Source: a virus. Taken from it: a DNA stretch of 64,000 nt. The stretch spans positions 32,001 to 96,000 of IMG/VR virus record IMGVR_UViG_3300044730_000313; one strand, written 5' to 3'. How positions within the stretch are numbered: the stretch's first letter is position 1; each line of letters begins with the position of its first letter. Below the pieces are notes generated by a model. That model was not told the origin of the DNA. It was given only the letters and a program-made list of their open reading frames with translations, and did no database searches. Shown piece after piece: positions 11,401-50,813 of this stretch. A program made the position numbers and the translations under genes.

Positions 11401-14400
11401 GTTTAGTACCTGTAGGGTGTCACCATATTGCAGGACAGGTGTACCTCTTAACACATTGACAGGCAACCCGTTATGTATAATCTCACCAGTGATTGATATT
11501 AAAATCAAACCCTTGTTACCCACCTTATCTTCAGGAACTAACACCTCACCTACATGGTTTCTCTCAAAGGTTAATATAGGTTTACCCTCAGCATTACGAA
11601 CAGGACTACCGTTCTCATCTAGGAGAGGAACATCATTTACAATTGGAATACCACGAGATATACGGAAGTCATAGATGGTGAATGCTGTAGCAGGAGCACC
11701 CATAAGTTGCTCTCTGTATTTAGCCCAAGCTTCTGAATAAGCCTTAGCCTCAGCCTCTTGACCAGCTCTGTAACGAGGGTTGCCCTTGCTATCATTGAGC
11801 TCAGGAGTGGGCATTGTTTGGAACACCACCTTGTTCAGGTCCACTTGTGTTCCCACCTCGTTCATAGGATTACCAGCCTCATCTGCAAAGAATAGCTTGT
11901 TGCCCTTTTGGACAACAAACACTTGGGCTATAAATCCTGTGTCAGGCTTTCTAATTGTTGCATTGAACTCTTTCAGTTCAGCCTCAGTCATCTTGGTGGT
12001 GTCCACCTTGTATGACAGAGCAGCCAGTCCTGTAAGTCCTAGACCAGCTTCCTGATTAGGTGTAACAAGGATGGCTTTAACATTAGCCCTGTTCTTGTTA
12101 TTCTTCACATTGTTCAGGAACCTTCTAGAACGTATAACATGGGGAGCTGACTTAGCAGGATCGTTATAAGTTTCTGATTCTGTAATACCACCAGTGAATA
12201 GAATAGACACCTCTCTTTTAGCAGGTTCTCTTTCACCAAACTCTTGAGAGGAGTCAATAGTGGTGACACCACCAGAGTTTTTCTCAATCTCATCTTGCTG
12301 ACGTGTAAGTTCTTCTTTCTTCTCAATCAGTTTCTCCTGAGCAGTTTGGATTCTTTCATACCCAGCCATTTGTGTAGGCTTGATATTTTGTATGTTACCA
12401 GCAAGGTCTTCCACCTTTATTGTACCATCCTCATTGATAGCCAACACCTTAACCTTCTGTAGGTCTTGGATGTTCTCATTCATATCCTCTGCAGCTTGAT
12501 CAGCATCCTCTTTATTACCATAGAATGTGCTCTCACCGAGTGGGGACACCACCTCATAGCGATCATCTGCAATCTTTGTCACCTTGGCCAGTTTGAGACC
12601 GTCCAACTGATATTCTCTATCTGTTTGAGGAATCTCTTTAAGACCTGCTTTATTTACAAACTCTAAAGGTTTTTCCTCAACTGCTTCTTCTTCCTCTTTC
12701 ACTTCTTGTTCTTCTACAGCAGCCTCTTGTTCTTCACTCATCTTTTCAGCCTGCTCAAAGAATTTGTTAAACCCTCCCTCGGTGGACAAAGCATCAACAG
12801 ACGCTTGAGCATCTTTCTTATGCTGTAAGAGTCCATTTATATCAGCCCCTAGTTTGTATATTTGTTCAATCTTATCTGAAGGAACTTGTTGATCCTCAAT
12901 ACTTTGCTGTCCACTTAGCTCAAAGTTAAGCAGTGTTCCAAAGGTTTTGAGGTCAAGATTGTTGTTATTAAGGGCAAGGTTGATACGCTCAGAAAGTGTG
13001 CGTAGAGTTTTAATTTGATTCCTAATAGACTTTTTATCTGCAGGGCTTGTGAACTCAGTAATGGTTTCTCCTAACATTTTAGCCTTCTGTTCGTATATGG
13101 AAGAAAGTTCCTTCAGGCCAGTTCTATTAGTGAGGGAAGATGCTGTGTTATTATTAAGGAGGGGATTGATTGCCACTAAGTCTTGCTCAATGTTTTTCAA
13201 TCTACCATCAACATCAGAAGCTACAGTGGAATAGTAGGCTAGGTTAGTCTTCCATTCATTTACAGTGTCATGCTTGAAGTTCTCAATAGCTTCCTCTTCA
13301 GTTTTAGGATCGTCGTAAGATACAAATGGATTTCTAAATGACTCGTTAATAGAGGTGATTGTACTGTTCATTTCGTTAGCCTTCTCAATCAGGCTATCTA
13401 CATAACTTGAAACAGTCTTCTTATTTGTCTCACTGAAGTCCATTCCAAAGGTCTTGGTGAACTCAGCCTCATTCAAATCTTTTAACATCTTTAGCTGCTC
13501 AACGGTTACATCATGCATCCCGTTTCTTGAGCGAGAGTTAACAAGATTGAAGAACATGTCGTGCTTCAGATTCTTGTATTTGAATACATTACCAGAATCT
13601 ACAGCATCTTGCATCTCTTGAGCAATACCCTTAGCATTGAGTGTATCAGAGTATTGATCTTGCAACATTCCTGTTATACCATATCTATTCAACAGATTAA
13701 CAGCACTTTGTAAACGCTCGTTATCTGTAGGAACACCCATAGCACGTTGAACTCTATTTGACATGCCACCCATGATAACAGAAGAGATACCCCCAATCAC
13801 CATGTTCTTCAAGCCTTCTGAACTAGTGAATTGTTCTGACAGTCCCTCTATTGTAGCAGCCATAACCTCATTAGTGGTTCTCCAGTTGTCTAGATTCCCT
13901 TCATCTTTGAGGTTCTTATACTTTCTTGTGTAGTAGTCAAATGTACCCTTCTCAGCAGCAAACTGTCCACCCTCTTCATATACACCCTCTGTAAGAACAT
14001 TCTTTAGGGTGGGTTTTACATAGTCCCAAACTTTACCTGTAGCGGTCTTTGCCACTTGTCTTTCAAACACATCCAGTGATCCTTCAGCAAGTCTTACACC
14101 ACCAGGTCCAACAGCTATGCCTCTTGCAGCAGCTCTTGCAGCAGCAGGAGCAGTGAATGCTCTAAGTAGGCTTCCATACTGAACAGCGTTTGAAACTGTC
14201 AGAAGCGCCATGTTAATTCCAAATCTTACATTCCTAGCATCAGCTGCTGTTTGTTTTATTTCTTCCAGATCAGCTCCTCCTGGAGACTCACCGTTATTTT
14301 TAGCTTTATAATCGTTAATTAAAGCTTCTGTAATTGTATGTTCTCCATCAGCAGCTTCAATAGCAGCTTCTGTTCTAGCAGAATTAAATAAACCTAATCC

Positions 14401-31087: not shown

Positions 31088-32337
31088 TATAAATACTGTT
31101 TGAATATGTTTGTTATTCCATAATCAAAGTCTATGAGGAATCCAGTCACTTCACCTTTAGCTATTGTGTAGCCATTCTTATCATCCCAACCACTCTTGGC
31201 TGTAGAGAAAGCAGGAAGCTGGAAGAACTTAATACCGTTAAAATCCAAGCTCACCTCGTGGTGTTTATCTCCTGTGAAGATGTAGAAGTTATCATGGTCA
31301 GACCATGCTTCTTTATATTCCATAGGAAATAGACCAGCTAGTTTGGCAGGTTTCAAAGCATCCCCATGATTGAACATCATGGCTGAGCTTCCGTAGCTAA
31401 CATACTTCCTATATCTAGGAGAGATGTCAAAGGACACACGGTTTTCATTTCTGAAATAGATTTCTAACCAGCTAGCCAAGTGCCATCCTACAAACTCATC
31501 GTGGTTACCAGCTACAAATATCACCTCCACATCACCACCTCTTTGAAGAAGTAGGTTTATTACATTCACCTCATGATCACATATTGCCTGAAAAGCAGTG
31601 TGATAGGAAAGGATGTTCTGCTGAGGTGTACCCTTTGTAGTGGTGTTTGTGAACTCACTGTTGAATTCGTCAGACCCAATTATGTATTTAATTTCTGTAA
31701 CGTTGTTAGAAAGAATGGCTTGGTTAAGAATTGTTTCCACTTTTTGAATATAGGTGGCAAATCTTTCCAAAATATCATTGTTTCCTTCTATATCTAGCTT
31801 GTTCAGGTGGGAGTCCTGTTTATTAATTACCAAACAAGCATTTGCTTTAGACAGCTCAAATCTAGGACCAATTATCTCAGGAGATACTGGTTGGTAGGTC
31901 TCTAAAAACGAAATGAACGAGTCTTGGAAAACTTGTTCATTCTTCTTCTTACCCAACCAGGCTTTCACCTGGTAATAAGGGTGTTCAACATTTCCCCAGT
32001 AGTTTTGGACGTATTTAGTTATCTCCCACTTGTCCGTATCAATCTTACACTTTTCAATCAGGTCCTCTAAACTCTTAATCTCTTCCTTGGTGTTTACCAC
32101 TATCTCACCTGTCCCTTTCTGCACATCCTCAATAAACCTAACAATTGTGTCTTCTAGCTCTCCAATATAGTTTCCAATCTCTGCCTCATTTTCCACAGTT
32201 TCTACGTTTCTGAGTTCTCGCATCAACGTATCCACCTCATCCTCTGTAATGTTTAGTTTCTCTGCATAGAACTTCTTGCTCTTTTTCCAGTGTAGCATTT
32301 GCTCCATCTGGTGCAGAAGGGATTGATTTTCAGGCAT
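31087..32337 (-). CDS. Calcineurin-like metallophosphoesterase with N-terminal extension
   Basis: QDSH, GSD, AGNHD, NHGD and GDKHH motifs in the expected order. Confidence 0.8.
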   Translation of the reverse strand: MPENQSLLHQMEQMLHWKKSKKFYAEKLNITEDEVDTLMRELRNVETVENEAEIGNYIGELEDTIVRFIEDVQKGTGEIVVNTKEEIKSLEDLIEKCKIDTDKWEITKYVQNYWGNVEHPYYQVKAWLGKKKNEQVFQDSFISFLETYQPVSPEIIGPRFELSKANACLVINKQDSHLNKLDIEGNNDILERFATYIQKVETILNQAILSNNVTEIKYIIGSDEFNSEFTNTTTKGTPQQNILSYHTAFQAICDHEVNVINLLLQRGGDVEVIFVAGNHDEFVGWHLASWLEIYFRNENRVSFDISPRYRKYVSYGSSAMMFNHGDALKPAKLAGLFPMEYKEAWSDHDNFYIFTGDKHHEVSLDFNGIKFFQLPAFSTAKSGWDDKNGYTIAKGEVTGFLIDFDYGITNIFKQYL

Positions 32338-49065: not shown

Positions 49066-49182
49066 TACAATCTTTTATGCTATTGCTATATTATGTCTTA
49101 TTTCCCTTATTCCCGTCTACCAGAAGCCATAAAAAAGCTTTATATCTAAAGGATGTATAGAATAATAACCCGCCCTCCACCC

Positions 49183-49215
49183 CAAAGTTACAACATCCTT
49201 CAGATAGGTTCCAAA
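49183..49215 (-). promoter_or_regulatory. Second late promoter TTTG-N21-TAACTTTG
   Basis: Consensus match. Confidence 0.6.
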
Positions 49216-49275
49216 TTTATTTTTTGCACACGGTAGTGAAAAACGCTACCTAGCGCAAAATTTTAGTCAACCTAT

Positions 49276-49455
49276 CCCTTGACAAACACTCCCCTATAGT
49301 AAAGCTCTAGCTTGACATTCCCCCCTACCAGGTTCCACGTGAAACAGATCCCCCCTGTTTTTTACCCCCTGGAAAAACCCCCCTATCCGTGAGGGGGGAG
49401 CTTACTCCACACCAAGGACCGGGGGGCAATGTGCGCGGTGGGAGCCACCCCCCGT
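49276..49455. repeat. C-tract/G-tract-rich non-coding region at the strand switch (possible genome end or origin)
   Basis: Repeated CCCC(C)T tracts, two CTTGACA-N-CCCCTA units, then G-tracts; late and early transcription diverge here. Confidence 0.55.
49331..49346. promoter_or_regulatory. parS: parS-like site GGTTCCACGTGAAACA
   Basis: 15/16 match to the chromosomal parS consensus TGTTNCACGTGAAACA. Confidence 0.6.
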
Positions 49456-49501
49456 GTAATTCGTTAACAAGGAGCCACCTTGTAAAAAACTGTCGAATTT
49501 T

Positions 49502-49948
49502 ATGTCACAAGAACTGCGTGTTAAATCAGGTGTTTGGTCAGCAAAAGGCAACTTCACAGCTCGTACAGCTTATGGCCAAACTTTCTTCGTCCACAGAAAC
49601 CAAATGACCGAGTTGGGTTATGAGAACAAACAGGACGAAAGTGGGAAATGGTCTAATCCTACAGTTAAGTTCCCATTCTATGCTGTCGTAGACACAAGCA
49701 TGATTGGTCAGCTTGACAAGGATGGCAATCCTGCGGTTGGAGAAGATGGCAAGCCTGTCCAAGTTGCTCGCATCAACGCACTCTCAGTGTTCAAAGACCT
49801 CGATGAGTTGAAAGCTTGTGCAATCGAAGAGCGTACTATTGGTTCAGACATCGAACTTGCAGTACAGCAGCACATTCGCAGCAAGGCTAGCACAGCTGGT
49901 CTCAGCGAGCAGGCTATCAGCAGCATTCTTGCTAACTCACTCGTGTAA
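49502..49948 (+). CDS. First early gene, hypothetical protein
   Basis: 148-aa ORF followed by a strong terminator. Confidence 0.75.
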   Translation: MSQELRVKSGVWSAKGNFTARTAYGQTFFVHRNQMTELGYENKQDESGKWSNPTVKFPFYAVVDTSMIGQLDKDGNPAVGEDGKPVQVARINALSVFKDLDELKACAIEERTIGSDIELAVQQHIRSKASTAGLSEQAISSILANSLV

Positions 49949-49956
49949 TGATTTAC

Positions 49957-49990
49957 GAAAGTGTCCTCAATCAGGGGACACTTTCTTTTA
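49957..49990 (+). terminator. Intrinsic terminator
   Basis: GAAAGTGTCCTC-AATCA-GGGGACACTTTC-TTTT. Confidence 0.8.
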
Positions 49991-50342: not shown

Positions 50343-50498
50343 GGCATTAATGCACCATCCTAGCTTCCCAAGGGCTAGCGGTTGTAATATCCAATTGGAG
50401 GTAAAGATGCGAGTAGGACAATGCTGCCTTTAACCCAGCGAGCCCTCGATTTCAAGAACGCCAGTTCTTGTATTACAACTGAGTGCAGAGGGATATGT
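50343..50498 (+). ncRNA. Twister-like self-cleaving ribozyme (P1-type layout) with a large P5 insertion
   Basis: T^AA-TGCA(P2)-CC...CTAGC-TTCCCAAGG-GCTAG(P4)-[CGGTTGTAATA...TATTACAACTG]-AG-TGCA-GAGGG; both pseudoknots can form (CCC/GGG and CC/GG). Confidence 0.65.
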
Positions 50499-50603
50499 AT
50501 AGGTGTTCATCTGTTCTACTTCATAGAATAGAGGCTTTTTGGTGATGCAAAACCATATATTTTTATCTAAATCCTTATTAATCAATCATTTAAACTAATT
50601 AAC

Positions 50604-50813
50604 ATGAAGTATTTGTTAAAGCTACTGTTCATGACAGTGGCATTCCTTGTTGTAGCACCAGGTGTATTGTTATATTGCCTGTGGCACCTTGATCTCAGCA
50701 CATTTAGAATCATGTGGTTTGATCAGAAAATGATCATTAGAGAGCCTATGTACAAATTGTTTAACATTAAAATTATGGGTTATGGCACTAAGCCTCAATC
50801 ATTCAGAGCATGA
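50604..50813 (+). CDS. Small membrane protein
   Basis: Hydrophobic N-terminus, A-rich leader. Confidence 0.6.
   Translation: MKYLLKLLFMTVAFLVVAPGVLLYCLWHLDLSTFRIMWFDQKMIIREPMYKLFNIKIMGYGTKPQSFRA

Follow-up and report, generated by a model that had tools for sequence, protein, structure and literature searches.

The window analysed here covers 64,000 nucleotides (positions 32,001 to 96,000) of IMG/VR virus record IMGVR_UViG_3300044730_000313, which is 113.7 kb long and 98% complete. Judged from its gene content, the genome that carries the element described below is that of a crAss-like phage: PHROG terminase and portal families and the Pfam domain "Crassvirus muzzle protein" were recognised, and the closest terminases are those of Cellulophaga phages and of Leptolyngbya phage Lbo-JY46, the latter with 40.8% identity. 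Leftward structural genes diverge from rightward small-gene and replication genes, and at this divergence, at the head of the rightward genes, a twister-type element of about 150 bases occupies window positions 50343-50498 on the + strand. A preliminary description had placed it just upstream of the small genes, and both the position of the first small ORF (50604) and the family comparison agree with this. The features of the locus are as follows (all on the + strand).

49502-49948, 148-aa ORF upstream of the element, taken from the ORF list.
49957-49985, terminator-like hairpin closing the 148-aa ORF; 12-bp stem followed by a U tract.
50344-50347, 5′ strand of P1 (GCAU); weak here, with its partner at 50495-50498 past a 2-nt bulge.
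50348-50350, predicted cleavage site U50348/A50349, together with A50350 (5′ strand of L1), from conservation in 93 aligned copies.
50351-50355, 5′ strand of P2 (UGCAC), pairing with 50483-50487; RNAalifold gives the same 5 bp de novo.
50356, C of the remaining T2/PK1 pair, with L4 G50372 as partner; CG in 91 of 93 copies and UG in 2.
50357-50359, J2/4 linker (AUC); the first A is present in 93 of 93 copies, the remainder varies in length and sequence.
50360-50378, P4 hairpin, CUAGC (50360-50364) with GCUAG (50374-50378); all five pairs covary.
50365-50373, loop L4, UUCCCAAGG, 9 nt; its AAG is invariant in the aligned copies.
50367-50369, CCC of L4, the 5′ strand of pseudoknot T1/PK2; its partner is G50490-50492.
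50379-50481, P5 arm; 11-bp closing stem (50379-50389 with 50471-50481) and an 81-nt interior (50390-50470).
50482-50487, junction A50482 and 3′ strand of P2 (GUGCA, 50483-50487); the junction A is present in 93 of 93 copies.
50488-50492, GAGGG; candidate general-base G50488, A50489, and GGG as the 3′ strand of T1/PK2.
50493-50600, leader behind the putative ribozyme, including the 3′ strand of P1 (50495-50498); conserved among related loci.
50604-50813, first small downstream ORF (69 aa), which opens the rightward gene block after a 111-nt leader.

No PHROG match was obtained for the 69-aa ORF. The earlier idea that the RNA is part of the first transcript and is made by a virion RNA polymerase is conjecture; no RNAP domain was recognised by Pfam or PHROGs in the 4290-aa ORF. 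Upstream of the 148-aa ORF, window positions 49150-49470 are non-coding and contain many runs of five to seven C, with G runs on the other arm and a G+C content above that of the neighbouring sequence; the minus strand carries a terminator-like hairpin at 49378-49398. A coding reading of the element itself was ruled out, as only short overlapping ORFs are present and the arm lengths of orthologues differ by non-multiples of three.

The core motifs of twister that had been reported for this locus were all read in the window sequence, in the order and at the positions listed above. The description of P1 as weak was likewise borne out, since it consists of 2 adjacent pairs, or of 4 pairs (50344-50347 with 50495-50498) if a 2-nt bulge is allowed, and the P5 arm of about 100 nt is present as an 11-bp closing stem around an 81-nt interior, with which the comparative data agree. 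For P2, given previously as UGCA/UGCA, both strands are in place (50351-50354 and 50484-50487, the former followed by CC at 50355-50356), and the length of the helix had to be corrected to 5 bp. The single-sequence minimum-free-energy fold of the window element was uninformative, with a z score of -0.58, and missed P2 and P4, because pseudoknots lie outside the folding model.

Relatives were collected from uncultured viral contigs and lake metagenome bins, and the same core was found throughout. The exact P4/L4 21-mer of the window is present in 6 other viral contigs, and a 14-mer from the 3′ part of the element in more than 119 loci; this search used the 3′ half alone, and 75 distinct elements among the matches listed carry the same 5′ half, which was the unsearched part. 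By combining the 14-mer scan with three targeted scans and prokaryotic genome bins, at least 107 distinct elements in 110 loci were obtained. Ten of the copies are on contigs placed in lake metagenome bins, several of which are labelled Bacteroidia or Chitinophagaceae, and the twister-variant family is so far limited to lake contigs of uncultured crAss-like phages. No match to the region or to a typical copy was found by blastn in 50,697 GenBank phage records.

The copies occupy non-coding gaps on the coding strand, and a hairpin with a U tract often abuts them, the last U's forming the 5′ strand of P1 and the U of the putative cleavage site. For the next ORF beginning with ATG the median length is 69 aa, and its start often lies 32-40 nt, or a few hundred nt, past the element. 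Two or three copies per contig are common in the family; the window genome has one only, as determined with the covariance model described below on the whole 113.7-kb sequence. In L133 (9839-10866) three copies lie inside 1.1 kb, and the longest ATG ORF noticed between them is of 19 aa; if all three cleave, RNA units of 385 and 525 nt with 5′-OH and cyclic-phosphate ends would be released. P5 ranges from 10 to 159 nt in the family. A natural minimal copy of about 54 nt (L242:1500-1553) has a P5 reduced to a 4-bp stem and a tetraloop and a P2 of UGUAC/GUACA; it directly follows a terminator-like hairpin on a contig binned with a Bacteroidia MAG. Expansions of L4 by 60-270 nt were observed in L085, L093, L213, L218 and L198 between the 5′ strand of P4 and CCCAAG; they begin with a conserved GUGGAUAUAAAGAC-like motif and contain two hairpins.

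For comparative analysis, 42 copies were aligned (alignment A1) and used to build a covariance model (R1) from which the pseudoknots were left out, and 93 distinct hits were then aligned to R1 (alignment A2). R1 scores the window copy at 90.5 bits, the window copy itself being among the training sequences. Applied to Leptolyngbya phage Lbo-JY46, R1 found nothing, and on Cellulophaga phage phi17:2 it gave a chance-level match alone (E 0.38). In A2, 94% of cells are paired, compared with 79.5% after shuffling of columns and 51% or less after sliding of the partners by 1-3 columns. Changes on both sides were found for 24 pairs, and the observed values were reached in 0 of 500 shuffles; these covariation counts are of sequences, not of independent events, since the members are related. 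P4 covaries at five of five pairs, with 99.4% of cells paired and eleven different stems, the base of P5 at nine of ten pairs, and P2 shows compensatory changes at three of five. P1, which adjoins the core, covaries at five of five pairs with 72.7% of cells paired, and its contiguous complementarity averages 2.95 bp vs 1.92 ± 0.14 in 200 permutations of the flanks. The stems follow the canonical order P1, P2, P4, with compensatory changes in all three. RNAalifold supplied with no structure recovered P2 (5 bp), P4 and P5, and the frequency of G-U pairs indicates that the structure is specific to the + strand. The preliminary description had named a lack of covariation in homologues as evidence against a ribozyme; among these 93 sequences covariation was found in P1, P2, P4 and P5.

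The contact between L4 and the 3′ strand is the decisive test of the twister fold. As T1/PK2 is absent from R1, the alignment was not fitted to it. CCC, CAC or CCA in L4 is matched by GGG, GUG or UGG, respectively, on the 3′ side in 103 of 107 copies, and in A2 two of the three pairs alternate between C-G and A-U (CG 68, AU 24 and other 1; CG 86, AU 6 and other 1), so that L4 pairs with the 3′ strand of L1 as in twister. A scan anchored on L4 variants and the base of P5 alone yielded about 30 copies with the L4 sequence UUCACAAGG, and in all but one of these GAGUG stands in place of GAGGG; in copies with the L4 sequence UUCCAAAGG, the 3′ block is GAUGG.

The second pseudoknot, T2/PK1, differs from what had been proposed for it, namely a covarying contact of CC (50355-50356) with the GG of AAGG. 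The first C (C50355) covaries with G50483 (CG 70, UA 21 and UG 2 in A2) and not with the last base of L4, which is still G where the equivalent of C50355 is U and is A in some copies that keep C; with the canonical L4 partner, the C50355 position forms a wobble or a mismatch whenever either side changes. It follows that C50355-G50483 is a fifth pair of P2 and that only C50356-G50372, which is essentially invariant in A2, is left for T2. A targeted scan for copies in which the equivalent of G50372 has changed gave chance matches alone. T2/PK1 thus appears to be reduced to one pair, and the stack of P2 and T2 would keep its canonical six layers as 5+1 vs 4+2. Nor is CC after P2 by itself a departure from typical twister, as had been assumed, because the published descriptor writes "NC" for that strand (PMC11662667). 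According to the same study, an imperfect PK1 goes with lower activity in tested twisters.

The bases at the putative active site are nearly invariant. In the 93 aligned copies, the nucleotide before the site (N-1) is U in 89, the first A (A1) is present in 91 and the second (A2 position) in 92; the G directly 3′ of P2 (G50488) is present in 92, and the A that follows it and the AAG of L4 in all 93. As in twister, an N-A followed by a second A (U50348-A50349-A50350) stands directly 5′ of P2, and a conserved G directly 3′ of its 3′ strand. The first A at the twister site is the general acid and the second is essential; activity is lost or strongly reduced when either A or that G is changed, whereas twister tolerates changes at N-1 and in P1 as well as insertions at position 1 of L4 (PMC11662667). 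The cut is therefore placed, as a prediction, between U50348 and A50349, and the site 50348/50349 given in the preliminary description is well supported in this sense by the conservation of A1, A2 and the putative general-base G.

Twister of type P1 may carry an optional P5 (Rfam RF03160; Roth et al. 2014, as described in PMC6154101 and PMC11662667). Shared with twister are the succession of P1, N-A-A, P2, a C pairing with a G of L4, P4, the L4 core CCCAAG, P2′, G-A-G-G-G and P1′; the pseudoknot from L4 to the 3′ strand; the candidate general acid A and general base G, with U at N-1; a P1 that is dispensable or variable; and an L4 whose 9 nt lie within the insertions tolerated at its position 1. 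A canonical twister sequence (bioRxiv 10.1101/2020.06.20.162982) has the same blocks in the same order, with the GAGGG block directly 3′ of P2. The resemblance is judged to be far beyond chance, and by the published structural descriptor the element is a twister except for the rewired T2. There are differences as well. P5 is reported in about 1% of twisters, whereas here it is obligatory, with a conserved sequence at its base and a hypervariable interior; the base that pairs with the last nucleotide of L4 in the canonical fold pairs locally here, which gives a P2 of 5 bp and a T2/PK1 of one G-C; and, unlike canonical twister, some relatives carry the two-hairpin expansion inside L4.

A further difference is that no member tested here was scored by any Rfam twister model, a result that is uncontrolled because no twister for use as a positive control was found in 151 Bacteroidota genomes. 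The Rfam 15 twister models were applied to the copies of the window, L006, L082 and L242, among them a relative whose arm has 50 nt, a copy of 82 nt and the natural 54-nt copy, and gave no match at the gathering threshold, nor at E ≤ 10 with very short inputs. A genome search with RF03160, likewise uncontrolled, also gave no match, and the family is thus not recognised as twister by the curated models RF03160, RF02684 and RF03154. There was also no Rfam match to twister-sister (RF02681). Twister-sister resembles the element in the sequence of its P4 loop and in its multi-stem layout (PMC6154101). It was called unable to form Watson-Crick pseudoknots in that 2017 review, which predates any structure; unlike twister-sister as so described, the present element has a covarying L4 pseudoknot, and its cleavage-site block is that of twister. 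In the full-text literature searched, neither core strings of the family nor a twister in crAss-like phages was found.

Hatchet ribozymes share phage small-gene arrays, and the strand, with twister-type copies. Matches to Rfam RF02678 of 78-82 bits vs a gathering score of 51 were obtained at L029:191-325, L019:6387-6553 and L009:5635-5767, so that in 3 of 13 related loci a hatchet precedes a twister-type copy by about 1 kb; the interval between the two contains ORFs in L029 and L019. Hatchet is unrelated to the twister-type element in sequence and fold and is absent from the window genome. It cleaves at its 5′ edge, so the ribozyme remains on the downstream RNA. On one of these related phage contigs, region L029:8424-8820 contains several tRNAs as well as a tmRNA gene (Rfam RF00023, 62.7 bits).

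Over its first 94 nt, the leader of the window shows 97-98% identity to those of L004 and L005 and 87-88% to those of L002 and L045. In the window, L004, L005 and L045 the leader is near-identical, the P5 arms have nothing in common, and the upstream flanks and downstream ORFs differ. The arms of orthologous loci, of about 22-100 nt, are completely different, and no relative of the window P5 interior was found in any fetched locus. The leader at 50493-50600 may be a promoter or a leader for translation initiation. Its last 27 nt recur ahead of other small ORFs in L002 and L004, and no repeat of this motif was found within the window.

A small minority of relatives (class B: L027:11806-11933 and 12497-12647, L040:247-442, L047:6532-6653, L110 and L237) is without the L4 CCCAAG, and most of these are also without the U-AA loop, AA being kept in L110 and L237. 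In class B a 5′ strand containing CCC and a 3′ GUGCAGAGGG strand join into one long helix, with complete pairing in L027 and L047 and covariation on comparison of L047 with L110; P5, the junction and a short P4 hairpin are kept. These copies look like ribozyme-dead derivatives. As class B retains P5 and the helices, the RNA may have a function that does not depend on cleavage, and class B is the main reason for keeping a non-catalytic function in play.

Taken together, the data argue for a self-cleaving ribozyme of the twister class, type P1, that represents a large phage-specific variant subfamily, a reading to which a probability of roughly 0.75 is given on the basis of sequence comparison. 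In this reading the RNA would fold into P1, an internal loop, a 5-bp P2, the P4 hairpin and the P5 arm; pairing of the L4 CCC with the GGG of GAGGG (T1/PK2) and of L4 G50372 with C50356 (one-pair T2/PK1) would place A50349 and G50488 at the scissile phosphate, with scission of the chain between U50348 and A50349. This would leave a 2′,3′-cyclic phosphate at the end of the upstream RNA, while the downstream RNA, with a 5′-OH, would retain the folded ribozyme, the conserved leader of about 110 nt and the small genes. The comparison shows the fold, the covariation in it and the constancy of the catalytic bases; from these we infer cleavage and its biological effect, which is likely to be that the rightward gene block is freed of upstream or read-through transcripts and obtains a uniform, structured 5′ end.

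That the element is a conserved twister-like structured RNA which does not cleave, for example a 5′-UTR element that binds a phage or host protein or protects the 5′ end and has P5 as its working part, is considered unlikely. The silence of the Rfam twister models and the rewiring of T2/PK1 to one pair are in line with it, as is the exchange of the pseudoknot for a contiguous covarying helix in class B with retention of P5 and the junction; however, class B accounts for only a small share of the relatives, three bases needed for catalysis alone (A1, A2 and the G 3′ of P2) are invariant in 91-92 of 93 copies despite being unpaired, P1 abuts the predicted cleavage site and covaries, and the gene arrays also contain hatchet, a proven self-cleaving class. 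It is hardly credible that the element is a signal at the DNA level (promoter, origin or recombination site) or resembles twister by chance: the location in a divergent non-coding region between leftward structural and rightward genes would suit such a signal, but the conserved halves are split by 10-159 nt of unrelated sequence, there are more than 100 independent copies, and the compensatory changes, strand-specific G-U pairs and pseudoknot already contradict it.

An active ribozyme might also be there for a small RNA rather than for mRNA processing: the hypervariable P5 arm would be cut out or presented as such, and tandem copies would release RNA units with ligatable ends. Such a purpose is regarded as quite unlikely, even though orthologous loci with leader identities of up to 97-98% have completely different arms, the interiors of the arms are on average more stably folded than mononucleotide shuffles (mean z -1.18 in 84 arms, which are related sequences), and the three L133 copies have very short ORFs between them. 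The window arm alone, with z -0.88, is not significantly structured; with just one copy in the window genome, there is no excised unit in this case; natural copies with a P5 of 12 or 24 nt indicate that a cargo is not required; and most copies stand 32-40 nt or a few hundred nt ahead of a small ORF.

If the twister-class ribozyme is accepted as the best explanation, the class would gain a large phage-specific branch that annotation with Rfam covariance models misses entirely, and ribozyme counts in viral metagenomes would consequently be underestimated. The family would offer a natural test of the need for T2 in twister, as one tertiary pair has apparently been swapped for a local pair at the same helical position. 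The 54-nt copy and arms of up to 159 nt indicate that P5, and L4 in relatives, accept large insertions, which may be useful for ribozyme engineering. In a broader and improbable picture, crAss-like lake phages would run "ribozyme-punctuated" early operons, in which the rewired twister and hatchet are interchangeable and cut ahead of cistrons, P5 is a selected, fast-diversifying RNA payload, such as a decoy or guide aimed at host functions, and class B copies are ribozyme-dead keepers of this payload. The position before small genes, often behind a terminator and near hatchets, would make the role of ribozymes in phages testable in a defined system.
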